A DNA stretch of 64,000 nt from Eledone cirrhosa (GCA_964016885.1 OZ024740.1:78926001-78990000), one strand, 5' to 3'. Counted from the first letter of the stretch, positions 7,133 through 63,822 are shown. The notes: generated by a model not told the origin, from the sequence alone. Translations and numbers: made by a program.

Positions 7133-10100
7133 ATCTGTTGGACCCTTCCTAAAAACTAAACTTCTCCTCTCAATCTGTTGGACCCTTTCTAAAAACTAAA
7201 CTTCTCCTAAGGTCACCCATTTCCCGCCCTCCCACCCCACACACCACCATTGCTATATGGTCCAATCATAACTCAGCGGCTTTAGTAAGTTCTCTAACAA
7301 ATCAGTATAGCAAAGCTACCACCCCGGTTACTACTCCTTAAGTTTAGACCTGTTTGATGGGTTGACTGCGGAAATTTGAAAAGTCTAAGCACTCAATGAC
7401 AATGTCACAGATAAAGATAAATTCACCTCCCGCTGCAAGACGAGAATACAAGGACCCCTCTTTATTTCAAACACAGATGACCAACAAAATCCCGTCTCCC
7501 ACACCCCTTCCTGCCCCTCCAACCCATCCATCCCACCCTCCAACTTCAGATTTGGTACCATGAACATAGGCACATTGAAAGGTCGCTCAAATGAGGTTGT
7601 AGAGATGCTTGAACGTAAAGAAGTTGATGTTTGTTGTATTCAAGAGACTAGGTGGATTCTGCCAGATTCATCGTGGGTAAAAAACGATGCTATAAACTTT
7701 TCTGGGTGGGAAATGACAACGGACTGGGTGGTGTAGGAATTATGTTAGCTGAGAAATGGGTAGATAAGGTAATTGACGTAAATAGAGTGAATGACAGAAT
7801 AATTGAATTAAGACTAGTTCTAAATAGAACTACTGTGACAATAATATCTGCTTATGCACCCCAATCTGGTCTATCTGATGTTATAAAGGACAGGTTCTAT
7901 GAGATGCTAATGCACAATACCTCCCAAATAACCAACAGTAACTACTTAATTATTGCTGGTGATCTAAACGGTCACGTTGGACAACATAGTGATGGCTAGG
8001 ATGGAATCCATGGAGGCTATGGGGTTGGAAATAGAAATGAGGAGGGCTTCAGAATCCTGGAATTCTGTGACGCAAATAGCCTAACTATCTGTAACACAAA
8101 CTTCAAAAAATGTGAAAACCACTTGATCACCTATAGATCAGGGGAACACGCCAGCCAGATAGATTATATCCTTACTAGAAGACGGGACAAAATGTCTGTT
8201 GTAAACACTAAATCCCTCCCCCGTGAAGAATGCACCTCCCAACATAGCCTAGTAGTTAGTGACCTCATAGTCAGGAATAGACGTACTCGACGACAGAGGC
8301 GGCCTACCTTGAGGAGAAGAATATGGAAGTTGAAGGACTCCACAGCCAGTGACAAATTTAAAAGCTTATTACTTGATGCCTTTGACAATAAGGAAGAGCA
8401 ATTAGAGACTTGCAATATAGAGGAACAGTGGCAATTCTTGAAAGTGAACCTACTGAAAGCAACGGATGAAATCTGTGGCTGGAGCAGACTTATTGGCAGG
8501 AGGAGAGAAACTTGGTGGTGGAACAGTAAGGTGGAAGAGACAATCAAGGCTAAAAAGCAGGCCTGGAAAGTATGGCAGGATGGGGGAAGTAGAGAGCACT
8601 ATCAAGTGGCCAGGAGAGAAGCTAGGAGACAAGTGTACCTTGCAAAAAGGGTAGCAGAGGATAGAAAGTTCAAGCATGTTCTACAACGTGAGGACAAAAA
8701 ACGTGAGGTGTTAAGGATTGCTAGACAATGTGTCAAGGAAAACCGTGATATTGTCGGAGAGAAGTGTGTCCGTATTGATAATGGTGTACTTGTGCTCACT
8801 GATACTGATAAGAAGATAGCCTGGAAGTGTCACTACGAGAGACTATTAAATGAGGAGAATAAATGGGAAAAATATAGTCTGTCCCAAATCAATCCAAAAG
8901 AAGGACCAGCAGTGCAAGTTAAAGGTAGTATAATAAGTAAGGCAAACAAAGATATGAAGACAGGCAAGGCAGCTGGGCCTTCGGAGATAGTTGCTGAGAT
9001 GTTGGAGGCATCTGGAATGGTGGGACACAGTATGGTCACCCGTATAGTTAACCAAGTAATACAGAATGGGATCATACCGAAAGACTGGCGTAGCAGCATC
9101 ATCATTAACTGCTACAAGGATAAAGGGGATGCTCTAGATAGGGGAAACTATAGAGGCATTAAGTTAGTTGACCAGATCATGAAGGTCACAGAAAAAGTTA
9201 TAGCGCAACTAATCAGAGAGCGAATTGATCTAGTTGAAATGCGGTTTGGGTTTGTGTCAGGTAAAAGTACCACAGACGCTCTTTTTCTTGTATGACAACT
9301 ATAAGAGAAGTACCTAGCTAAAAGTAAACTACTTAGCTTTTGTAGACCTGGAGAAAGCTTTTGACAGAGTCCCCTGCTCCATTATCTGGTGGGCTCTTAG
9401 AAAACTAGGTGTAGATGAATGGTTTGTGAGAGCTATACAAGCTATGTATAATGAAACAGTCAGTAAGGTTAGAATTAACAATGAATATTGTGAAGAATTT
9501 AGTGTAAAAGTTGGCGTTCATCAAGGCTCTGTCCTTAGCCCCCCTCTTATTTATTATTGCCCTTCAGGCTATAACAGAGGAGTTCAAGACCGGCTGCCCA
9601 TGGGAACTCCTATACGCAAATGATCTCACGCTCATAGCTGAATCAATGGCTGAACTATAGAAGAAATTCGAAACATGGAAGCATGGCCTAGAATCAAAAG
9701 GCCTTAAAGTTAACTTGTCTAAGACTAAAGTTCTAGTTTGTAGAAAGGAAAATAGGGCACAGGTGCCCTCAGGGAAATGGCCATGGTCCGTGTGTAGGGA
9801 AGGAGTAGGCAGAAATTCCATTTTATGTCCCAAATGCAAAGTATGGGTACATAAAAGATGTAGTGGGATCACAGGTAAACTATCTAAGAACGTAGACTTT
9901 ATATGTGGCCAATGCTCAGGTGCAATAAGTAGCAAGTGTCCACAGGATACTAGCTCCTTCTATTGCCCAGATGGTTCTATAGAAATAGTAGACACTTTCC
10001 GTTACCTAGGTGACAAAATCAGCAGTGGTGGAGGGTGTTCTGAAAGTACAGTAGCCAGAGTCAGAACGGGATGGAAAAAGTTCAGGGAGCTTATACCGCT

Positions 10101-10922
10101 GTTGGCCACAAAAGGTTTCTCTCTAGAAATGAAAGGCAGATTGTATGATGCCTGTATATGAACAGCAATGTTACATGGCAGTGAGACATGGGCATTACGT
10201 GCAGAGGACCTGCGTTGACTGGAAAGGAACGAAGCATGCATGCTCCGTTGGATGTGTAATAGTAATATACGTGAACGGCAAACCATAAACGAACTATTAG
10301 GAATAAGAGGGATCAGATGCTGTTTACTTGAGAGAAGACTACGTTGGTATGGTCACATGATGCGCATGAAAGACGACAGCTGCATAAAAAAGTGCAGGGC
10401 GATCAAAATTGATGGTAGTTACGGAGTAGGTAGACCCAGAAAAACCTGGGATGATCTGATAAATTCTGACCTCACTTACATCTCTCTAAGACAATGTCTC
10501 TGGACCGAGATCTTTGGCGCTACGCAGTAATACAGAAGACCCGCCTTGCCTATGTACAAAGCGAAACCTACAGTCAGTAGGCACCTCTTAACCAAATATA
10601 CGCCCCAATCCACTACCCCTACCCTATCCCCCCACTCCCACCAACAGCACGAGAAAATGAGATCGAGATCGTGTAGGTGTCACGACAAAAAAACACGCAC
10701 AGTCCACGCTGTAATGTGGCCGTGTAGGTAACACGGTAAAAAGTTCCCAGTTCCACACTGTAAATGTGGTTGGTGTTAGGAAGGGCATCCAGCCGTAGAA
10801 AACCTGCCAGATAATCTTATATGAGCGAGGCACGGTCACCCGACCAGCCTTGCCTCAAGTGGGACAACTCCCGTCTAACCCATGCTAGCGTGGTAAATGG
10901 ACGTTAAACGAAGATGATGATA
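7133..10922 (+). mobile_element. Near full-length, inactivated RTE-clade LINE (APE endonuclease + RT + PHD-like finger)
   Basis: APE motifs GTMNIGTL, CIQETRW, SAYAPQ, IAGDLNGHVG, SQIDYIL; RT motifs NYRGIKL, FVDLEKAFD, GVHQGSVLSP, YANDL; several stops and frameshifts (ORFs 7652-7999, 8123-9295, 9715-10161, 10240-10530); (GAT)n tail; 39-bp tandem duplication at the 5' end. Confidence 0.95.
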
Positions 10923-23259: not shown

Positions 23260-23410
23260 TGTCTTCCTGTTTTCTAAAGGCAATATTTGTTTGTAACTTT
23301 TTTGAAATATTCACTTCTGCATCTACAGATTAATTTTTCTCACTTTCAGAAGATTCCGCTAAGAGTGAAAGCAGTAATTTATTGCTTAAATGTTTAATCT
23401 GTACTAATAA
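23260..23410 (+). repeat. Diverged copy of the 23765-23912 repeat with a hammerhead-like CAGAAGA motif
   Basis: GTCTTCCTGT...TTTTTTGAAATAT...TTTCAGAAGA...GTGAAAGCAG...TTGCTTAAA aligns with the downstream copy. Confidence 0.6.
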
Positions 23411-23675
23411 TGTATATATTTATATATAACAAAATTTGTTTTTGCTCTTAATGTGGTGAATACTTAAATGTATTCGTGTGTGGCAGACAGGAGAATACAC
23501 AATCTTGATAAGGTGCAAAACACTCCGAAACAATATTGTTGATTGTTTTCTCTCAGCAACCATTGGAACAAAAGGATGAAGTTGTTCATCTACCACGTGG
23601 TGTATTATGAGGCAGTTTACTTGTAAACAAACTGAATATTAATAATATGATATTATTATATTTTTATTCACTCAC

Positions 23676-23709
<34 letters not shown>

Positions 23710-23717
<8 letters not shown>

Positions 23718-23990
23718 TAAAATAACAGATTAAAGTTTAAGCAAAGAATCGCTGCTTTCACCCTATCGTCTTCCTGTCTTCCTCCAGTTGCAACGTTTTT
23801 TGAAATATCCAGTTCTGCGTTTACAGATTGACTTTGTTAGTTTCAGAAGATCCCGTTAAGGGTGAAAGCAGCGATTCTTTGCTTAAACTTTAATCTGTTA
23901 TTTTAATAAATATTTGCTCTACGGTTCTTATATATTTGATATATATTTATCCTTATCGAGCCCTCTTTGGATTTTAGTCTTCAAATTTAT
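23710..23990 (+). mobile_element. Short insertion with perfect 55-bp inverted duplication and hammerhead-like motif, between (TA)n tracts
   Basis: 23710-23764 is the reverse complement of 23859-23913; AGTTT-CAGAAGA-T-CCC-GTTAA-GGG-T-GAAAGCAG...TTGCTT-AAACT at 23839-23889. Confidence 0.7.
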
Positions 23991-24051: not shown

Positions 24052-24198
24052 TATTTTCCGTTGTGTTGTAATATAAATATTACACACAGTAGATTATCAG
24101 CTCACGTAGAGTTTGCTCGACGGTTCCAGTTGTAGTTCCAAAAGTAATCCGGAGAAAAATAGAAAGATTTGAATGGATACAGTTTAGTTGAAAGGAAT

Positions 24199-24315
24199 TT
24201 ATTGACACGTGTTTCTATAACAGTTACATAACCTAAAACCGCTATCTACAAACTTTTAGTTATGCAGACATTCAATATTTCAATGTTATTATTTACTGTC
24301 ATTTCATCAGAATAA
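24199..24315 (-). ncRNA. Type I hammerhead ribozyme in the inverted pLTR
   Basis: Reverse complement of 27482-27598. Confidence 0.85.
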
Positions 24316-24600
24316 TATTACTGAGGACCTATTTAGTTTTTATAGAGAATATTAGGAGGGAGGGGTGAAGTTGTTAGAAGAATAGTTGAAGGAGTGGTTT
24401 TTCGATAGCAGTGAGAATTCTTGGTGGCAGTGAGTAATTAGATTCCCATCTGTTGTTTTGACATTTTTTATAGAATATATTATTGGTTATTTTTCTAAAT
24501 CTATAGAAGGATTAGAGATAGTAAAGATATGCGTGGTTGGTTTTGTGTTTGCACTTAACATTCAGACTTAAATTTTTCTTTCAAGTGTACGTATTCTTTC

Positions 24601-26529
24601 ACTACATACAACAACTTCATTCGAAAAGAATTACATAAAAAATATAGAAAAACGAGTGAAGTAACCCTTAAGCACATCAATGATGAGGCATGCGAAATAG
24701 TGAAAAATCTCGGAATCGAAGATAGGACAGGACCACTCTTACCGGCGGTACCCACCTTCAATCTTAAGGACCACAAGGTAAACTTTGATAATGACCCTAA
24801 AATTAGATTAATCTGCCCCTCTAAATCAGATATAGGTAAAATAAGCAAATATATCTTAGATAGAATCATCCCCCAAATTAAGGCTAAGGTTAACATTAAA
24901 CTCTGGGGGAAGACCCAAGAAGCAATAAGATGGTTTAATGGCATTAGCAATAAGAATAAATCTAAGTTTATCCAGTTTGATATCGATGAATATTACTCAT
25001 CGATATCACCTGAAACTTTGAATAGAGCCATTAAGTTTGCTAAGGATAACTCTGACCTTACAAACGATGAAATTAAGATTATATTAGAAGCTAGGAAAAC
25101 TATAGTCAAATTTGAGAACAGTTATTGGGTACGTAAAGATAGACCCTCTAACTTTGACATAACAATGGGCTCTAACGATTCGGCGGAAATAACTGATATT
25201 GTGGGGTTATTTATCGCCTTTAGACTCCAGGAAAAATTCAGCAATCTCCACGGCGGAATATACCGCGACGATGTTCTCCTCCTAGCTAAAAACCTTAATA
25301 ACCAAAAACTAGAAAAACTACGCAAAGATATAAGAAAACTACTACTTGAAATAGGACTAACTATAACATATGAATACAACCTTAAAGTAGTTAACTTCCT
25401 GGATGTCACACTCAATTTAAACTCTGGTTTGATTAAACCGTTTCATAAATTGAATGAAAATCTCAAATACGTAAATGTTGGGTCTAACCACCCCATCTCT
25501 ATAATTAAATCTATCCCTAAAAATATTTCCCTTAGAATCTCGGGTCTATCTTCTAACATACAAGTATTTAAGGAACACGCCGAGTACTACGATAACGCCC
25601 TTAGTAAAGCAGGCTACCTCAACAAAATAGAGTACATAGATGGGAACAATCAAAACACCCAAAATAAATCCCACATAGGTAGATATAATAACACAACACC
25701 AAACCACACTTACTACCATAGTATGCACACCAGTAAACCAACAAACAAAACTAATAGAAAGCGATGCAAAGAGTACTTATGGTATAACCCCGAATACAAT
25801 AGCTCCATTAGTACAAATTTACCAGTACTCTTCTTTAAAATAATTAAAAGACATTTTCCCACATCACACAAATACCACAAAATCCTAAACCCTACCACTA
25901 TAAGACTGTCATACTCTACAGCGTTAAACCTTGAACAACACATAAAAAAGATCAATACTAGAAGGTTAAACGAAAACACTAAGAACTTAAGTACAAAGAA
26001 CCCCAAAAAAACAGTAGACAATACACTACAGAACATAAATAAACCACACCTAAGTTCGTCCGCAATACTACTCCAGAGAAAACCCAACGTACACAACTGT
26101 AACTGCACCTATCCTGACAACTGCCCCCTCGGCAATAACTGCCTGGAAAAAAATATTATTTATAAGTGTACCATTAAATCCGGAGGCAACGAGTGGTATT
26201 ACGTGGGATCAACGGCAACATCGTTTAAATCTCGATTGTATAGGCATTCTTACTCAATAAAACACCAGAGCCAAAGAAATGTAACAACTTTAGCAGAAAA
26301 GGCTTGGACGCTCAGGGATAGCAATCAAAAGTTTACCCTAAAATGGGAAAAATTAGCTAAAACCCAAAGCTTTTCCAGGAGCCAAAATTTCTGCAAATTG
26401 TGTAATCTTGAGATTTATTACATAATCACACACAAGAAGAAACTGCTGAATAACAGAATTGAACGAACATTATTCTGCCGTCACAGAACTAAAACCCTTT
26501 TTTCCCACTACAAGCAGAATATTACATAA
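24601..26529 (+). CDS. Penelope-like reverse transcriptase / GIY-YIG endonuclease (N-terminally truncated, otherwise uninterrupted)
   Basis: LKDHK.NF.NDP.IRLI.P.KSDIG, FIQFDIDEYYSSI, FDITMGSNDSAE, IYRDD, VNFLDVTLNL; CNC...CPL..C, IIY...YVG, CKLC.LE, LLN.R, CRH. The frame is open from the inversion junction, upstream of the listed GTG start at 24700. Confidence 0.92.
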   Translation, partial: TTYNNFIRKELHKKYRKTSEVTLKHINDEACEIVKNLGIEDRTGPLLPAVPTFNLKDHKVNFDNDPKIRLICPSKSDIGKISKYILDRIIPQIKAKVNIKLWGKTQEAIRWFNGISNKNKSKFIQFDIDEYYSSISPETLNRAIKFAKDNSDLTNDEIKIILEARKTIVKFENSYWVRKDRPSNFDITMGSNDSAEITDIVGLFIAFRLQEKFSNLHGGIYRDDVLLLAKNLNNQKLEKLRKDIRKLLLEIGLTITYEYNLKVVNFLDVTLNLNSGLIKPFHKLNENLKYVNVGSNHPISIIKSIPKNISLRISGLSSNIQVFKEHAEYYDNALSKAGYLNKIEYIDGNNQNTQNKSHIGRYNNTTPNHTYYHSMHTSKPTNKTNRKRCKEYLWYNPEYNSSISTNLPVLFFKIIKRHFPTSHKYHKILNPTTIRLSYSTALNLEQHIKKINTRRLNENTKNLSTKNPKKTVDNTLQNINKPHLSSSAILLQRKPNVHNCNCTYPDNCPLGNNCLEKNIIYKCTIKSGGNEWYYVGSTATSFKSRLYRHSYSIKHQSQRNVTTLAEKAWTLRDSNQKFTLKWEKLAKTQSFSRSQNFCKLCNLEIYYIITHKKKLLNNRIERTLFCRHRTKTLFSHYKQNIT

Positions 26530-26699
26530 AAGAGTGACATCCCCCAACTATATAAACCTTAATCTAGTTAGAAAAATATAAAAACAATCTCTTCTCAACA
26601 TATATTAATAACCTTAAATTACCATACTAATAATGAAAAGATATGCTGATGAGAATAGGTACAAATATGCGATAATGAATGTGTCTAAAAACGTCCATA

Positions 26700-26856
26700 A
26701 GTATGTATATATATGTGAAAATGTATATAAATAAGTAAATATATATATATGTTTGATGTGTATAGTTAGATGTAAGTGTATTCATGTATTAAAGTGCTTA
26801 TATATATATATATGTGTGTGTATGTATGTATATATGTGTATATATGTATATGTATG

Positions 26857-26911
<55 letters not shown>

Positions 26912-27190
26912 GTATATGTGTATGTATGTATGTGTATATGGATGTGTATGTATGTGTATGTGTGTACACATGGACTAGAGTATGTATGTATATATGTGTG
27001 TGTCTATACGTGTGTATATATAAAGATAAGTTGAGTATGAAAATGTATACACATGAGCGCGTATGTATGTACATGAATACATGTGTGTATATATATGTGT
27101 ATGCATGTGTATATATATGTAAGTATGAATATGTGAATTGTGAGTATATGTATTTTGTAGAGGTGTGCAAATATATTTGTGTGTGAATGC
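26700..27190. repeat. Compound (TA/TG)n microsatellite inside the Penelope 3' region
   Basis: Directly visible between the ORF stop and the pLTR. Confidence 0.9.
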
Positions 27191-27481
27191 GTGGGTGAAA
27201 GAATACGTACACTTGAAAGAAAAATTTAAGTCTGAATGTTAAGTGCAAACACAAAACCAACCACGCATATCTTTACTATCTCTAATCCTTCTATAGATTT
27301 AGAAAAATAACCAATAATATATTCTATAAAAAATGTCAAAACAACAGATGGGAATCTAATTACTCACTGCCACCAAGAATTCTCACTGCTATCGAAAAAC
27401 CACTCCTTCAACTATTCTTCTAACAACTTCACCCCTCCCTCCTAATATTCTCTATAAAAACTAAATAGGTCCTCAGTAATA

Positions 27482-27598
27482 TTATTCTGATGAAATGACA
27501 GTAAATAATAACATTGAAATATTGAATGTCTGCATAACTAAAAGTTTGTAGATAGCGGTTTTAGGTTATGTAACTGTTATAGAAACACGTGTCAATAA
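27482..27598 (+). ncRNA. Type I hammerhead ribozyme in the 3' pLTR, intact core
   Basis: TTATT-CTGATGA-A-ATGACAGT...ACTGTTAT-A-GAAAC-ACGT-GTC-AATAA; predicted cleavage after 27593. Confidence 0.85.
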
Positions 27599-27659
27599 AT
27601 TCCTTTCAACTAAACTGTATCCATTCAAATCTTTCTATATATATATATATATATATATG

Positions 27660-36517: not shown

Positions 36518-38724
36518 CGTTTTTGTTTCTGTTGTTTGTTGTTTTTTTTGTTTTTTTTTTCTATCAGTTTTTACAAAATATTTGAAGAAATGTATAAAAT
36601 AAAGGGTAGTGAATTGACAGTCTTTAGAATGTCAGCTAGAATATATTATGGCATCTGTTTTGGCTATCTCTACTCTGATTTCAAATCCCACCAAGTTCAA
36701 CTTGCACCCTTTCCAAGTCAATAAAGTACCACTTCAGCTGGTAGATTGGTAGAATTGTTAGAACATCTGATGAGATATTTTGCAGTATCTGTTCTTACTT
36801 TTTGCATTCTGAGATAAAATTTTACCTCCTATCTCTGGTCCCCTTATGGCAGAAAACAGCCTTCAGGACATATCTAACAGGGATTGGCTGCCAGTGCCAG
36901 ATGGAGCAATATGCCAGTTGGATCAGCATCTGAGTTGCATCAATATGTATAAATGCAAATATAGATTCTGCACTAGGATACATTATAAATGTTAAGACAA
37001 GAAAATTGAAATGTATCAATTTTTTAACCAAAATTTCAGAAGTATAAATGAAAAATACTGTTTTATTTTTAAACAGATAAATATGATAGCTACATAAGAT
37101 GATGTAGATTAATTTTCATAGGATTTCAATAGTAATATTTTATATAAAATAATTGTTTCTACTTTAGGCACAAGGCCAGCAATTAACCAGTACATTACTG
37201 GTACTTTATTTTATCAACCCCGTAAGGATGAAAGGCAAAGTTAACCAACAATAAGAACAATATATACATATTATTTTATATAAAATAATATATCTATATT
37301 GTTCTTATTGTTGTTCAGTCAGAGAAGACGGGCAGTGCCCATAAACCTGTCCAGAGCCATTATTTGAGACAAGTTTGTGTGTGTGTGGGGGGGGGGGGGG
37401 GGTTTAGCCAGGTGGTATTGTTAAGCCAGAAAACCGATTAACAATAGAAACAGCAAGAGTTGAACTTCGAATGCAAAAAGCCAGAACAAGTACTACAAGG
37501 CATCACATCTAATGCTCTAACAATCCTGCTAATCCACTGAACTGGATTGCTACTTCATTTTATCAACCCTGAAAAGACAAAAAGGCAAAATTGATCTCAG
37601 TGGGATTTGAACTCTGAGCATAGAGAGTTGAAACAACCACCACAAAGTATTTTGTTCTATTTTCTAACAAGTCTGATAATTCGCCACCTACAGAAAACCA
37701 TGCAGTTCTTTTTATCTTCTTCTTTTCTATTCTTTAAATACAATACAGTTATCTACCTTTTTCTTTTCTTTCCCAGATTTGGCTGTGTATTTTAGTACAC
37801 ACACACACTTGTTTTGTTTTTTTCTTTTCTTCATCTGCCAGATAGTAGTGTTTGAAGTGGAAAATGAAGAAAGTTATTATCATTCCAATATTCCCCCTTC
37901 ATCTAATGAACTCTGTAAGCTTACTGTCGATGGAGTGTATAAAACGTAAAACCCCAAAAATGTTTCAACCTAACAAAGCAATGTTACTAATGTGAACTTA
38001 ACAGCAATTGAGACTGCCCAGGTTCAATTTTAGGTTGCTAACTATCAATCTCCTACAGACTGACACATTCCTAAAATGTTTAGGGTTAAACAACACATTG
38101 ATGTACTGCAAGCAAGTAAAGGTTTTCTGATCTTTCATTAATGTATGACTCATCTCCTGTCGTGATGATTATTTCAAGAATACTTGACAATCTATGAAAA
38201 ATAACTCAATCTCAATTAATTTAACCCAATAATGATATATTTCTACACCTTGTCATTCTTTAAATATTGATATATTTTATTGCACCTTATACCTTTTATT
38301 TTTTAATCTTATTTATTTTATTTCTTACTCTCTGTGCACTTTCTAAGGAAGCTTTCCATTTTACCCCACTGTTTTCATTTGTCAAGTTTAACTCCAAAAT
38401 TAATCTGTTTTCTCCATGCCATACATAACATTACCATATCCATAGCTCTTGGCATCAAGGACGTTTTACCCCTGAAGAAGTACCTCAATATATATTTGGA
38501 CAGTTTGAAAAAATATATATATATGTATATATATATAATTAATACAATAACAGAGATAGCTTTAAGCTAAACTCCGACTGGTAACCATCTCACTCAACAA
38601 ACATTAGGTTATACGTTAGTATAAACCCAATTTAAGTGTTTGGGGTGCTAACTATATGTATTTTGTGGAAAGCCAGTTGTATTATTTTATATGAGATATA
38701 ATTAAAGTTAAAATATATCTCTCT

Positions 38725-38849
38725 TTCCAAACAATTGTTTCATTATAAGTTTTCTACAAGTTTGGAGAATGTTTCCAGTTTATGTAGAAGCCTAACATAT
38801 TTTCATGTAAGAAAATATTTAGGTGGGCACGTATAAATCGTCAGTGGAA
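38725..38849 (-). ncRNA. Type I hammerhead ribozyme (downstream copy)
   Basis: TTCCA-CTGACGA-T-TTATACGT...ACTTATAA-T-GAAAC-AATT-GTT-TGGAA. Confidence 0.82.
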
Positions 38850-39720
38850 GCCCATTAAACTTTGATATAAGAAAAAATTCCTTACCACAGTTAATTTTCA
38901 TGTCCGCTAAGTTGTTCCTTCACGCATTGAATGACCGCCAAATTTGAAATTCCAGCAGTCTTTTGACTGAGGAAGTATCATAGCGTCACGAAGCGGAAAA
39001 GGGAGACAACCACGATTCACGAGAAAAGTAAAATAATATACACGTGGGTTAATTAGTTTTTTCAAAAACATTATCAATCCTGCGTGTTAAGAACTCACAT
39101 TTATTTTTTTTAAATTAATTATGCGTGTATTAATTACACACGCATATAGATATTTTCTTAGGCTAAAAACAGAGAAATGATACCTAAAAACAATCACATC
39201 TCATAACTGTAATAAATACGGAAAGTTACGCTTTAAAAGGCATTTGGGAATGTAAATCTCTGGCCAAATTAAGAGTAAAATATTCAATACACGCGAGTTA
39301 ATTAGTTATTTCAAAACCAATATTAATTTCGCGTGTTAAGAACTCAATTAATTTAAAAAAATAAATGTATGCATGTAATTATTTACACACGCATATAGAT
39401 ATTTTCTTAGGCTAAAAACAGAGAAATGATTCCCAAAAAAACAAACAATATCTCATAACAGCAATAAATACGGAAAGTCATGCTTATAAGGTACCTGGAA
39501 ATAAAAATCTCTGGCCAAATCAAGAGTAAAATATTTAATACAATAACAGAGATAGCTTTAAGCTAAACTCTGACTGGTAACCATCTCACTCAACAAACAT
39601 TAGGTTATACGTTAGTATAAACCCAATTTAAGTGTTTGGGGTGCTAACTATATGTATTTTGTGGAAAGCCAGTTGTATTATTTTATATGAGATATAATTA
39701 AAGTTAAAATATATCTCTCT

Positions 39721-39845
39721 TTCCAAACAATTGTTTCATTATAAGTTTTCTACAAGTTTGGAGAATGTTTCCAGTTTATGTAGAAGCCTAACATATTTTC
39801 ATGTAAGAAAATATTTAGGTGGGCACTTATAAATCGTCAGTGGAA
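39721..39845 (-). ncRNA. Type I hammerhead ribozyme (upstream copy, perfect stems)
   Basis: TTCCA-CTGACGA-T-TTATAAGT...ACTTATAA-T-GAAAC-AATT-GTT-TGGAA; 5-bp stem I, 8-bp stem II, palindromic stem III. Confidence 0.87.
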
Positions 39846-39911
39846 GCCCGTTAAACTTTGATATAAGAAAAAATTCCTTACCACAGTTAATTTTATATAT
39901 ATATATATATA

Positions 39912-42263
39912 TTAGATGAAGCAGTTAAGGCCAAGAGACAGGTATGGAAAGAATGGAAGAACGGGGGGAGCAGGGTACATTACATAGAGACCAAGAGGGA
40001 AGCTAGGCGACAAGTATACTTAGCTAGGAGGGAAGCAGAGGATAGAAAATTCAAGCATGTCTTGCAACGTGAGGACCAGAAACAGGAGGTATTCAAGATT
40101 GCGAGGCAGTGTGTAAGAGATAGTTGTGATGTCATTGGAGAGAAGTGTATCCGGAATGATAAAGGTGAGCTTGCCCTCACAAGTGCTGAGAAGAAAGATG
40201 CATGGAAGAGTCATTATGATAGATTACTAAATGAGGAGAATGCATGGGAAGAAGAGACCCTACCCCAAGTAGACCCTATAGAGGGACCAGCAGTACAAGT
40301 CAGCAGCAGCGTAGTAAGTAAGGCAATCAAAGATATGAAGATGAGGAAGGCAACCGGTCCATCGGGTATAGCTGCCGAGATGCTGAAGGCATCTGGGTCT
40401 GTAGGTCACATTATAACCACACGTATCGTTAACCAGGTAATACTAGAAGGTGCCATACCAAAAGATTGGTGCAGTAGCATCATTGTCAACTGCTACAAAG
40501 GTAAAGGCGATGCACTAGATAGAGAAAACTATAGAGGTATAAAGTTGATGGACCAGGTCATGAAAGTAACAGAAAGAGTTATAGCACAGCTGATTAGGGA
40601 CCGGGTGAAAATAGACGAGATGCAATTTGGGTTTGTACCAGGGAGAGGCACCACTGATGCCCTCTTCCTTGTGAGGCAATTACAGGAAAAGTACCTAGCT
40701 AAAAGTAAGCCACTCTACTTGGCATTTGTCGACCTTGAGAAAGCCTTTGACAGAGTTCCACGTGCTGTAATCTGGTGGGCTCTTAGAAAACTAGGAGTAG
40801 ATGAATGGCTTGTGAAAGCGGTACAAGCCATGTATAGGGGAGCAGTCAGCAAAGTTAGGATTAGCAATGAGTATAGCGAGGAATTTAGCGTACAGGTTGG
40901 GGTCCACCAGGGCTCTGTTCTTAGCCCTCTCCTGTTCATCATAGTCCTGCAGGCAATAACGGAGGAGTTTAAGACCGGATGCCCATGGGAACTCCTGTAT
41001 GCTGATGACCTCGCACTCATAGCTGAATCTATGGTAGAACTAGAGAATAAATTCCAAACTTGGAAGCAGGGACTAGAAAGAAAGGGTCTCAAAGTCAACA
41101 TGACAAAGACTAAGGTCCTTGTAAGTAGACGAGAAAACAGAACCCAGATCCCCTCAGGGAAATGGCCTTGCTCAGTATGTAGGAAAGGTGTAGGTAGGAA
41201 CTCCATTCTCTACCCCAAATGCAAACAATGGGTACACAAGAGATGTAGCGGGATCTCAGGAAGCTTAATTAAGAATGTAGGATTCACATGCAGCAGCTGT
41301 GCTGATACAGCAAGCAGCAAACAGCCACAGGAAACAAGTACCACCAATCTCTGGGAGGGCCCTGTAGAAACAGTAGACAGCTTCTTCTACCTAGGTGACC
41401 GAATTAGCAGCGGAGGTGGGTGTTCAGAAAGTACAATAACTAGGGTAAGAACGGGATGGAAGAAGTTTAGGGAACTACTACCACTGCTAGCTGCAAAAGG
41501 CTTCTCCCTCAGAATGAAAGGCAGACTGTATGATGCGTGTATCCGAACAGCGATGTTGCATGGTAGTGAGACCTGGGCGCTGAAGGTGGAAGACTTATGT
41601 AGATTAGAGAGAAATGAAGCCTGTATGCTCCGATGGATGTGTAACAGTAATATACGTGAACGACAAAGCATAAATGAATTGAGAGAGAGACTGAGCATAA
41701 GAGGAATCAAATGCTGTGTGCAGAAGAGGCGGTTGCGCTGGTATGGACATGTGATGCGTATGAAGGATGACAGCTGCATAAAAAGGTGCAGAGCACTAGA
41801 AGTTGATGGAAACCGCGGAGTGGGGAGACCCAAGATGACCTGGGATGAGGTGATAAAAGCCGACCTTACCCAATTGCACCTCTCAAAGACAATGACACAC
41901 GACCGTGACTTCTGGCGTCACGCAGTAATACAGAGTACCCGACCTCCCATGGGTACAAGCTGAAGCATATAGACAATATGCCCCCACACCCCCCACCGCA
42001 AGGTGGTCGTGGAGGTGCCACGGCAAAAAAGCACCCAGCCCACACTGTAAAGTGGACGTGTAGGCGCCACGAAAAAGCACCCAGCACTCACTGTAAATGA
42101 GGTTGGTGTTAGGAAGGGCATCCAGCTGTAGAAATCAAGCCAAATCAGTCCTGTATGAGCAAGGCAAGGTCAGCCGACCAGACACTGCCCACAACAGGAC
42201 AACCCGTCTAACCCATGCTAGCGTGGAAGAACGGTAAAACGGTGATGATGATCATGATGATGA
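39912..42263 (+). mobile_element. Young 5'-truncated RTE LINE with uninterrupted RT ORF
   Basis: Begins mid-ORF after (TA)n; ends CCCATGCTAGCGTGGAA...(GAT)n. Confidence 0.95.
40062..41963 (+). CDS. RTE reverse transcriptase with embedded PHD-like zinc finger (endonuclease lost by truncation)
   Basis: NYRGIKL, QFGFVPGRGTTDA, AFVDLEKAFD, GVHQGSVLSPLLF, LYADDL, YLG, RLRWYGHVMR. Confidence 0.93.
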   Translation: MQREDQKQEVFKIARQCVRDSCDVIGEKCIRNDKGELALTSAEKKDAWKSHYDRLLNEENAWEEETLPQVDPIEGPAVQVSSSVVSKAIKDMKMRKATGPSGIAAEMLKASGSVGHIITTRIVNQVILEGAIPKDWCSSIIVNCYKGKGDALDRENYRGIKLMDQVMKVTERVIAQLIRDRVKIDEMQFGFVPGRGTTDALFLVRQLQEKYLAKSKPLYLAFVDLEKAFDRVPRAVIWWALRKLGVDEWLVKAVQAMYRGAVSKVRISNEYSEEFSVQVGVHQGSVLSPLLFIIVLQAITEEFKTGCPWELLYADDLALIAESMVELENKFQTWKQGLERKGLKVNMTKTKVLVSRRENRTQIPSGKWPCSVCRKGVGRNSILYPKCKQWVHKRCSGISGSLIKNVGFTCSSCADTASSKQPQETSTTNLWEGPVETVDSFFYLGDRISSGGGCSESTITRVRTGWKKFRELLPLLAAKGFSLRMKGRLYDACIRTAMLHGSETWALKVEDLCRLERNEACMLRWMCNSNIRERQSINELRERLSIRGIKCCVQKRRLRWYGHVMRMKDDSCIKRCRALEVDGNRGVGRPKMTWDEVIKADLTQLHLSKTMTHDRDFWRHAVIQSTRPPMGTS

Positions 42264-61671: not shown

Positions 61672-63202
61672 ACCATCATCATCATCATCATCACCATTTT
61701 ACGTCAGTTCTTCCACGCTAGCATGGGTTAGACGGGTTGTCCTGTTGTGGGCAGTGTCTGGTCGACTGACCATGCCTTGCTCATACAGGAATTGATTTGG
61801 CTTGATTTCTACAGCTGGATGCCCTTCCTAACACTAACCTCATTTACAGTGAGTGCTGGGTGCTTTTTCGTGGCGCCTACACGTCCACTTTACAGTGTGG
61901 GCTGGGTGCTTTTTTGCCGTGGCACCTCCACGACCACCTTGCAGTAGGAGGGTGTGGGGGCATATTGTCTATATGCTTCAGCTTGTACCCATGGGAGGTC
62001 GGGTACTCTGTATTACTGCGTGACGCCAGAGGTCACGGTCGTGTGACATCACCTTTGAAAGGTGTAATTGGATAAGGTCGGCTTTTATCACATCATCCCA
62101 GGTCATCTTGGGTCTCCCCACTCTGCGGTTTCCATCGACTTTTAGTGCTCTGCACCTTTTTATGCAGCTGTCATCCTTCATACGCATCACATGTCCATAC
62201 CAACGCATCCGCCTCTCCTGCACACAGCATTTGATTCCTCTTATGCTCAGTCTCTCTCTCAATTCATTTATGCTTTGTCGTTCGCGTATATTACTATTAC
62301 ACATCCATCGGAGCATGCAGGCTTCGTTTCTCTCTAATCTACGTAAGTCTTCCACCTTCAGCACCCAGGTCTCACTACCATGTAACATTGCTGTTCGGAT
62401 ACACGCATCATACAGTCTGCCTTTCATTTTGAGGGAGAAGCATTTTGCAGCTAGCATTGGTAGTAGTTCCCTGAACTTCTTCCATCCTGTTCTTACCCTA
62501 GTTATTGTACTTTCTGAACACCCACCTCCGCTGCTAATTCGGTCACCTAGGTAGCAGAAGCTGTCTACTGTCTCTACAGAGCCCTCCCAGAGATTGGTGG
62601 TACTTGTTTCCTGTGGCTGTTTGCTGCTTGCTGTCCCAGTACAGCTGCTGCATGTGAAGCCTACATTCTCAATTAAGCTTCCTGAGATCCCGCTACATCT
62701 CTTGTGTACCCATTGTTTGCATTTGGGGCAGAGAATGGAGTTCCTACCTACACCTTTCCTACATACTGAGGGGATCTGGGTTCTGTTTTCTCTCTACTTA
62801 CAAGGACCTTAGTCTTTGTCATGTTGACTTTGAGACCCTTTCTTTCTAGTCCCTGCTTCCAAGTTTGGAATTTATTCTCTAGTTCTACCATAGATTCAGC
62901 TATAAGTGCGAGGTCATCAGCATACAGGAGTTCCCATGGGAATCCGGTCTTAAACTCCTCCGTTATTGCCTGCAGGACTATGATGAACAAGAGAGGGCTA
63001 AGAACAGAGCCCTGATGGACCCCAACCTGTACACTAAATTCCTCGCTATACTCATTGCTAATCCTAACTTTGCTGACTGCTCCCCTATACATGGCTTGTA
63101 CAGCTTTTACAAGCCATTCATCTACTCCTAGTTTTCTAAGAGCCCACCAGATTACAGCACGTGGAACTCTGTCAAAGGCTTTCTCGAGATTGACGAATGC
63201 CA
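61672..63202 (-). mobile_element. 5'-truncated RTE, close sister of the 39.9-42.3 kb copy, inverted
   Basis: ORFs 62748-63203 and 61978-62457 are nearly identical in protein to 40062-41963; small deletion and frameshift near 62770. Confidence 0.95.
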
Positions 63203-63822
63203 ATGAAAATACAATAGTAAATATAGTGTAATGTAAATGTTAAAGAGTTAATGATGGTTATTTCATAAAATTATGGTGGAAACTTTTTAGATAAATATAA
63301 ACATTTTAAAATAAACCAAGGGGTATTATAGGTTGTTTGGTATGAAATGGGTTAAATTAAAATTGTCCATCATAATTTTTGTAAAGATCTTTCTTTCAGT
63401 TATGCTGAAAAAGTTGGTGAATTTACTAAATTCCTCCAAATTGGTAATTAATTTAAAAATTTGAATTGAAACATATAAGCAGGATATTTTATTAGAAATT
63501 TTCATCATCATTTCCATGCTGGCATTGGTTGGACCATTTGAGGGAGAATTCTATGGCAGATGTCCTTCCTGATACCAACCCTTATTTGGCTTTTTTTAAA
63601 GTAAAGTATAGTTGATTATTCCACTATAGAAAAAATCGACTGTGTTCAGACATGGGGAGGGTTGGGCTCTGCCAGTTTTAAATGTGCCCTAGACACACCG
63701 TATGATGGTGCCTCTATGACTCCACAAGGTGTTATGGGATCTTTATCCCTTATAGATCTTTGCACATCTAACATCTGAACTGTTAGTGATATCAGATAGA
63801 AATACAAAGTGAAGAGACAAGT

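Follow-up and report, generated by a model that had tools for sequence, protein, structure and literature searches.

A multi-copy, protein-less hammerhead element in the Eledone cirrhosa genome that likely hitch-hikes on Penelope-like elements

The retrozymes of animals that lack long terminal repeats (non-LTR retrozymes) have been proposed to derive from the pseudo-LTRs (pLTRs) of Penelope-like elements (PLEs) and to be moved by PLEs (PMC7229834; 10.64898/2026.07.22.740005; these and all other papers are cited here from parts of their content). Among PLEs, the elements of the Hydra clade nearly all insert in (TA)n and carry canonical hammerhead ribozymes, Naiads are described as being without canonical hammerheads (PMC8557442), and pLTRs have been reported to mobilise unrelated sequence in trans (PMC3846280). 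In the case of the Poseidon element PAc, reverse transcription starts internally, downstream of an uncut hammerhead, at AT-rich targets; uncut RNA is the main substrate, cleavage is not needed, the ribozyme cleaves only with the protein present and no RNA-seq ends map to the cut (PMC11167929). The need for hammerheads in PLEs, and the standing of a circle as a real template, are left open in the sections of PMC8557442 and PMC11167929 used here. In this work, we describe an insertion in a 64,000-nt stretch of the Eledone cirrhosa genome (GCA_964016885.1, OZ024740.1:78926001-78990000; hereafter the window, with positions counted from its first letter), which lies at 38539..39894 on the minus strand and consists of 1.36 copies of a 996-nt unit, arranged as a partial tandem, without an open reading frame (ORF) and with two hammerhead motifs.

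The element is real, mobile and non-coding. On balance, we consider it probable that it represents one insertion, between (TA)n runs, of a multi-copy protein-less unit, likely a non-autonomous PLE copied in trans by a helper reverse transcriptase (RT)-endonuclease (EN) that probably belongs to the Hydra clade. What is seen directly, and what this reading builds on, is the duplicated segment, an absence of coding capacity, the (TA)n insertion target, a multi-copy family with shared junctions and a ribozyme signature of Hydra type. The sense strand, which we assigned from the hammerhead, is the minus strand. Two 360-bp direct repeats (38539-38898 and 39535-39894, offset by 996) bound the insertion and differ at three positions (38575/39571, 38831/39827 and 38854/39850). 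They are best read as Penelope pLTRs, not as true LTRs, generated by the partial tandem. The upstream pLTR (39535..39894, minus strand) carries the insertion's 5' end at 39894, 169 nt before the predicted cut of its hammerhead, and the downstream pLTR (38539..38898, minus strand) carries the 3' end about 190 nt after the corresponding cut, from which we infer an internal RT start ~190 nt past the cut. Since neither end of the insertion lies at a cleavage site, a linear monomer running from cut to cut cannot have served as the template, which leaves uncut RNA or a circle. Most of the interior is made up of two ~250-bp tandem units (39024..39542, minus strand; 39024-39291 and 39271-39542, 83% identical), an older duplication, the first unit of which begins in the last ~7 nt of the upstream pLTR. 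The non-duplicated internal segment (38899..39037, minus strand) then runs into the downstream pLTR across a junction that is common to diverged copies.

The (TA)n target lies at approximately 38514..38537 on the left, with one TG interruption, and at 39894..39912 on the right; any target-site duplication (TSD) is hidden in the microsatellite. Directly after the right-hand run, a 5'-truncated LINE ORF with an RT domain (39915-41963, plus strand; RVT_1 in Pfam) begins right at the (TA)n that bounds the element. Within the insertion, none of the six frames stays free of stops for more than 59 codons, and an RT-EN remnant was detected neither by tblastn, for which 52 related RT-EN proteins served as queries (best E 0.19), nor by a profile hidden Markov model (HMM) of 52 such proteins (E 0.57), which elsewhere in the window identified exactly one coding Penelope-like ORF. 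No tRNA gene was found in the element. An earlier note on this DNA, made from its letters alone (the sequence-only reading), had described the two direct repeats with three differences and a 996 period (as about 359 bp long), the lack of an ORF and the flanking (TA)n, all of which agree with our results. We rejected a DNA transposon, as there is no terminal inverted repeat beyond the TA runs, and we also rejected dating by repeat divergence, as the differences between the pLTRs may stem from the donor.

Each pLTR carries a predicted type I hammerhead on the minus strand, with hammerhead 1 at 39721..39845 (C3 at 39840, N17 at 39726, predicted cut 39726/39725) and hammerhead 2 at 38725..38849 (C3 at 38844, N17 at 38730, predicted cut 38730/38729). 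Both have the type I layout, in which CUGANGA, GAAA and UH core elements are joined by three helices with an open stem I; here stem I has 5 bp, the first core element reads CUGACGA, stem II has 8 bp, the palindromic stem III has 2 bp and a 4-nt loop, and the site is GUU. These core positions bear out the hammerheads and cut sites that the sequence-only reading had placed in the two repeats. The intact stem II that it had claimed, UUAUAAGU/ACUUAUAA, is perfect only in the copy at 39xxx; in the copy at 38xxx, position 38831 forms a C.U mismatch that few family members share (the pairing base is T in 184/186 and 318/325 reads). Position 10.1/11.1 is U.U, not G-C, in both hammerheads, as compared with the G10.1-C11.1 of the canonical motif. 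Stem II encloses a 78-nt insert, absent from the sequence-only reading and predicted to form two hairpins, which puts 96 nt between A9 and G12. This stem II domain of 88-96 nt, its lower value being that of a neighbouring coding PLE described below, is the most unusual feature here; a literature search for a large helix II insert found no paper, although this is a thin basis for claiming absence. A strict hammerhead descriptor yielded 4 matches in the window, 2 in the element and 2 in the coding Penelope-like element, and 0 matches in 100 locally shuffled windows. The Rfam search that had been proposed as a check was run and returned no hammerhead match at the gathering score or at E up to 10.

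The hammerhead is predicted to be weak as a monomer because stem III has only 2 bp and the monomer core is trapped in an inactive fold that is 5.7 kcal/mol more stable; it would work as a double hammerhead via the palindrome, perhaps with help from a protein. In the full RNA, the calculated cost of the double hammerhead in cis relative to the free fold is 10.5 kcal/mol, as against 13.2 for a pair of monomers, and in isolation the double hammerhead (-63.8) ties with two inactive monomers (-64.0). The unit folds with a z of -5.3 and its segments with z of -3.4 to -4.1, 2/21 control windows lie at z -3.3 or lower, and the predicted 996-nt circle is 63% paired. Because the plus strand is nearly as well folded (z -2.6 to -3.5), this folding is not strand-specific. 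One contig from organism B holds a variant with the loop GGCC and a GUC site in which the palindrome is kept, which is what function as a dimer would require.

Copies were surveyed in four of nine public sequencing runs, mapped to 38300-39620: X1 (the same species, perhaps the source sample), X4 (another sample), X5 (another organism) and X7 (restriction-site-associated DNA (RAD) reads from an independent study). An X1 contig that matches the left flank over 204 letters without a single difference had a depth of 6.62, and the summed X1 contig depth over the element was 3,924-169,054 in bins 38570 to 39604 (1,493 contigs), a crude measure that gives no copy number and that we read only as hundreds to thousands of copies. 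X7 contributed 3,877 reads on the stretch versus a flank depth of at most 1; of these, 249 were at least 99% identical to the element, 797 were 95-99%, 1,306 were 90-95% and 1,525 were below 90%. This spread of identities indicates a family that is old and diverse with a young fraction, so that the youth proposed by the sequence-only reading may hold at most for this copy and does not hold for the family. The 17 related contigs of X5 included none at 99% or above. Both pLTR-interior junctions recur outside this locus: 39535/39536 is bridged by X4 record 16 at ~90% identity, and 38898/38899 by X4 records 10 and 11, X1 record 4 and X5 record 20 at ~83-89%, and further contig pieces tile nearly all of the interior of the element. 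Because these junctions are bridged in diverged contigs, the ORF-less layout is not special to this copy, and the element belongs to a dispersed multi-copy family with shared ORF-less junctions, as seen in short contigs and with a crude copy number. The local single-copy duplication that the sequence-only reading had named among its refuting conditions is excluded, subject to the caveats on contig depth, by read and contig depth as compared with the flank, and by the presence of the sequence in a second organism.

The summed X1 depth falls from 64,792-117,375 at 39515-39604 to 7,788 at 39470-39514 (about eightfold or more), which fits a preferred 3' end for most copies. The drop in X7 depth near 38898 is no proof of a fixed 5' end because the library enzyme cuts at AATT. 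For piles of X7 read ends, one of which lies at 38733, near a predicted cut, we rejected a reading as cleavage products or element ends in favour of a RAD library artefact; among the places listed, 7/7 lie at or beside AATT sites. Two loose ends, one in X4 at 38657 and one in X5 at 38706, suggest that other subfamilies have different stem III sequences and GUC cleavage sites; in one of them, the downstream block that is shared appears to lie closer to the cut. An exact 26-nt pattern gave 0 matches in metagenome contigs, and a literature search for a retrozyme in octopus found nothing on such an element.

The likely helper clade is Hydra, not Naiad, as suggested by the (TA)n target, the U.U base of stem II, the GUU site and the palindromic stem III. 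The target is seen in this one copy, and the hammerhead is of the canonical type with a GUH site and with the U.U that is often found at 10.1/11.1 in Hydra elements, though this combination is not an exclusive marker; in the published Hydra families, we counted U.U at 10.1/11.1 in 14/25 and N17=U in 10/25 (File S2 of PMC8557442). The element has a hammerhead of canonical type, unlike Naiads. The interpretation given by the sequence-only reading is supported in part. A mobile, non-autonomous, Penelope-linked element is borne out by the multi-copy family and the ribozyme, whereas a Naiad helper does not fit, as Naiads are described as lacking canonical hammerheads (PMC8557442) and both signature and target point to Hydra.

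As a comparator, the window contains a 5'-truncated coding Penelope-like element of Hydra type (24052..27638, plus strand), 11 kb from the element studied here. Part of its ORF (24603-26529, plus strand) encodes an RT followed at the C-terminus by a GIY-YIG-type EN, with a CxCX5C linker. The Hydra clade is marked by this linker and by the RT motifs RWK and DKT; RW and DK motifs are found in the neighbour's relatives, within the part that the neighbour has lost. A Pfam search with the neighbour's RT-EN protein gave no match. The neighbour has a perfect 444-bp inverted pLTR (100% identical) and (TA)n at both ends, and it looks young, with an open 640-aa RT-EN stretch and a ~107-nt extension beside the pLTR. 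Its 3' untranslated region (UTR) holds a TA/TG-rich tract of ~500 nt, 958 nt separate the stop codon from C3, and its ends lie 45 and about 150 nt after the cut. Its predicted hammerheads (C3 at 27487+ and 24310-), which are likewise missed by Rfam, share the build of those in the element, with an unpaired 10.1/11.1, an 8-bp stem II, a long insert that brings the stem II domain to 88 nt, and a stem III that is likewise palindromic. By its sequence, the neighbour shows a Hydra clade that is present and recently inserted, without implying a partnership with the element.

We further compared 79 metagenome loci related to the neighbour's protein, many of which are near duplicates. A hammerhead was found in 54/79 of these loci; among 63 sense matches, U.U occupied 10.1/11.1 in 22, and the stem II domain measured 11-25 nt in all 63. 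The distance from stop codon to C3 had a median of 131 nt in 39 loci. Several loci (L011, L020, L054, L064, L074 and others) hold coding Hydra-like units that are 2.36-2.85 kb long and have a hammerhead on either side, and in 24 loci the start codon follows C3 at a median of 191 nt, a conserved spacing. Relatives of the neighbour's protein were found in 0/44 candidate stretches of viral contigs, and none of three 15-nt motifs taken from the element and the neighbour occurs in the portion of the Craig supplement (PMC8557442) that was searched.

In the mechanism that we propose, a partial-tandem donor would be transcribed on the minus strand from a start in or before the upstream pLTR. The helper protein would bind the RNA downstream of the hammerhead and nick a TA microsatellite, upon which the RT would start inside the RNA, ~190 nt past the second, uncut hammerhead site, and copy back through both ribozymes to regenerate the repeat-internal-repeat structure. 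An uncut transcript of a 1.36-unit donor would be enough to regenerate the same structure. The hammerhead would be inherited from the parent element, and its cleavage need not be part of mobilisation.

Several points weigh against this interpretation. An autonomous partner was not found, with one coding PLE in the window and 79 metagenome loci compared: the alignment of the element's pLTR to that of the neighbour is no better than chance (298/300 shuffles score as well), and the same pLTR has no match in the 79 loci at the DNA or translated level. The element's 3' end lies 190 nt past the cut, as compared with 32-129 nt in related loci (13 cases, 12 loci). The call of the Hydra clade is not exclusive because U.U is also found in the axolotl retrozyme hammerhead (PMC7229834) and because Neptune elements favour microsatellites too (PMC8557442). 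The short contigs each prove single junctions, no listed piece spans the whole stretch, and X1 is perhaps the source sample. For the dimer in isolation, the active form remains less stable than the free cofold (-69.2). Finally, the template may be either the uncut RNA or a circle, as the data would fit both alike.

This last point leads to the alternative of a true retrozyme, in which a dimer would be cut by its two hammerheads, the 996-nt monomer would be ligated into a stable circle, and a PLE RT would roll past its start to give more-than-unit insertions. A more-than-unit structure with ends away from the cuts is what such a process would produce, and a circular template would leave the same footprint as an uncut RNA. 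The dimer fold is favoured over two monomers (it is 2.7 kcal/mol cheaper), the unit is well folded, as the z of -5.3 and the pairing of the predicted circle show, the palindrome is kept in the variant of organism B, and an axolotl hammerhead with U.U and a stem III of 2 bp is cleavage-competent, reaching 22% in 1 h as a monomer and more as a dimer, and gives circles (PMC7229834). We nonetheless hold this alternative to be unlikely, while deserving serious attention, given that the plus strand folds almost as well, that PAc uses mainly uncut RNA and has no RNA-seq ends at the cut (PMC11167929), that only 1/9 Xenopus dimers cleaved in vitro (10.64898/2026.07.22.740005), and that the downstream stem II of this copy is weakened. 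A bolder proposal along these lines, speculative and in our estimate slightly less likely still, is that of an abundant ~1-kb circular-RNA retrozyme family parasitising Hydra-clade Penelope elements, whose folded stem II domain would be a switch or protein-binding site and whose cleavage would need dimerisation or the helper RT. If this were true, hammerheads that escape Rfam and short-loop descriptors would form a class extending across the lineage, as marked by the recurrence of the oversized build in a coding element of this genome that is not related to the one studied here.

The other explanations dispense with a PLE-borne non-autonomous family. The locus might consist of two stacked, 5'-truncated 3' ends (360 + 996 nt) left by a coding PLE whose 3' UTR is long, or of a one-off internal deletion. 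With 958 nt between stop codon and C3 in the neighbouring Hydra element, 996 nt of pure UTR are possible, and the pLTR is better covered than most of the interior; the bridging of junction 39535/39536, which under this model would arise only upon insertion, by a ~90%-identical contig from another sample, with the internal tandem unit continuing across the border, however, makes this quite improbable. In addition, the related loci have a median of 131 nt from stop to C3 and the element holds no ORF remnant, and among the loose ends listed none in the interior is coding-like, those of contigs being diverged versions of the same sequence and those of reads lying at AATT sites. A true LTR element, either a plant-type LTR retrozyme or a TRIM moved by a Ty3/gypsy integrase, would match in size, as plant retrozymes have 300-400-bp repeats around a 300-600-bp non-coding middle (PMC4918200). 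By inspection, however, neither repeat has a primer-binding site (PBS) beside it, a clear polypurine tract (PPT) is lacking, and so are TG..CA ends and a 4-bp TSD; the hammerhead is of type I, not type III, and a microsatellite target and 3'-biased coverage are traits of PLEs. We regard this explanation as highly improbable and the LTR-like retrozyme of the sequence-only reading as not supported in its plant sense. Equally hard to credit is the view that single-copy DNA was duplicated locally in tandem and resembles a ribozyme by chance, which has the high identity of the two repeats in its favour and nothing more, and which is contradicted by a depth that exceeds the flank's by a factor of hundreds to thousands, by the presence of the sequence in a second organism and by the 0/100 matches in shuffled windows.

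Other features of the window were recorded alongside the element. A ~200-bp element at 23712-23911 (with a weaker relative at 23291-23422) follows a (TA)n run and has ~50-bp terminal inverted repeats; over its terminal 36-41 nt it is similar to the studied element's 3' end (75-79%, E 0.0009-0.1 depending on the query), which, self-matches aside, scores highest of 120 TA-flanked ends (32 vs 22), and it is possibly a palindromic PLE stump or a miniature inverted-repeat transposable element (MITE). In addition to the LINE at 39915-41963, LINE copies lie at 8000-10161 (plus strand) and 61978-63239 (minus strand), and we assume that all three are probably of RTE type. A degenerate long inverted repeat (36640-37651, 70-73%) contains a central 70-bp palindrome at 37246-37313, and the folding window beginning at 37000 has a z of -6.0. 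A tRNA-like match of 37 bits at 756-826 on the minus strand is probably the head of a tRNA-derived SINE.

A protein-free, high-copy passenger that keeps both the core and the palindrome offers an uncluttered system in which to ask what a PLE RT requires in cis, and whether it uses uncut RNA or a circle. As an element that likely hitch-hikes on PLEs, it would extend the link from PLEs to retrozymes, for which the arguments have so far come from pLTRs of vertebrates, to a (TA)n-targeting clade of invertebrates. The stem II domain of 88-96 nt suggests that animal hammerheads are undercounted by current ribozyme searches.

The element was compared with several described systems. Plant LTR retrozymes (PMC4918200) are alike in overall size, in the order repeat-middle-repeat and in having a hammerhead in each repeat, but have type III hammerheads, a PBS, a PPT, a 4-bp TSD and a Ty3/gypsy helper, none of which was seen in the element by inspection. 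MRC1 and the other non-autonomous Chlamys PLEs of Chlamydomonas (PMC8557442) are, like the element, non-coding with pLTRs, and were first filed as an LTR element; they differ in belonging to a green alga, in having a helper with an N-terminal EN, in being mostly without hammerheads and in sharing their 3' end with an autonomous family, a partner of the kind that was not found for the element. The PLEs of the Hydra clade share the (TA)n target, the partial-tandem pLTR, a hammerhead near the 3' end, the signature CUGANGA-U ... U-GAA and the GUH site, whereas the element lacks an ORF and has a loop 2 of 78 nt as compared with 3-10 nt in 25 tabulated families; the parts of PMC8557442 used here do not describe a non-autonomous Hydra family.

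Judged by its sequence, the element would qualify as an animal non-LTR retrozyme, a group whose members carry type I hammerheads, two or more of them complete, in tandem units and are expressed as cleaved linear and circular monomer RNA; the two predicted hammerheads of the element lie one unit apart, albeit within only 1.36 units. With the members of that group (PMC7229834; 10.64898/2026.07.22.740005) it shares a non-coding, AT-rich repeat, type I hammerheads whose stem III is short and palindromic, a one-unit spacing between the two ribozymes and the U.U base of stem II seen in axolotl HHR_Amex2. It differs in being a dispersed insertion of 1.36 units, known here from one locus, as opposed to a multi-copy array, and in its 96-nt stem II domain and (TA)n target. 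Its 996-nt unit compares with 150-450 nt as typical for the group and up to 972 in the consensus (10.64898/2026.07.22.740005, whose supplements may list larger ones), so that its size, which the sequence-only reading had taken to be exceptional, is barely above that of published animal retrozymes, where the range known so far ends (972 bp). The element establishes no new class, and is notable for its likely link to Hydra and its oversized stem II.

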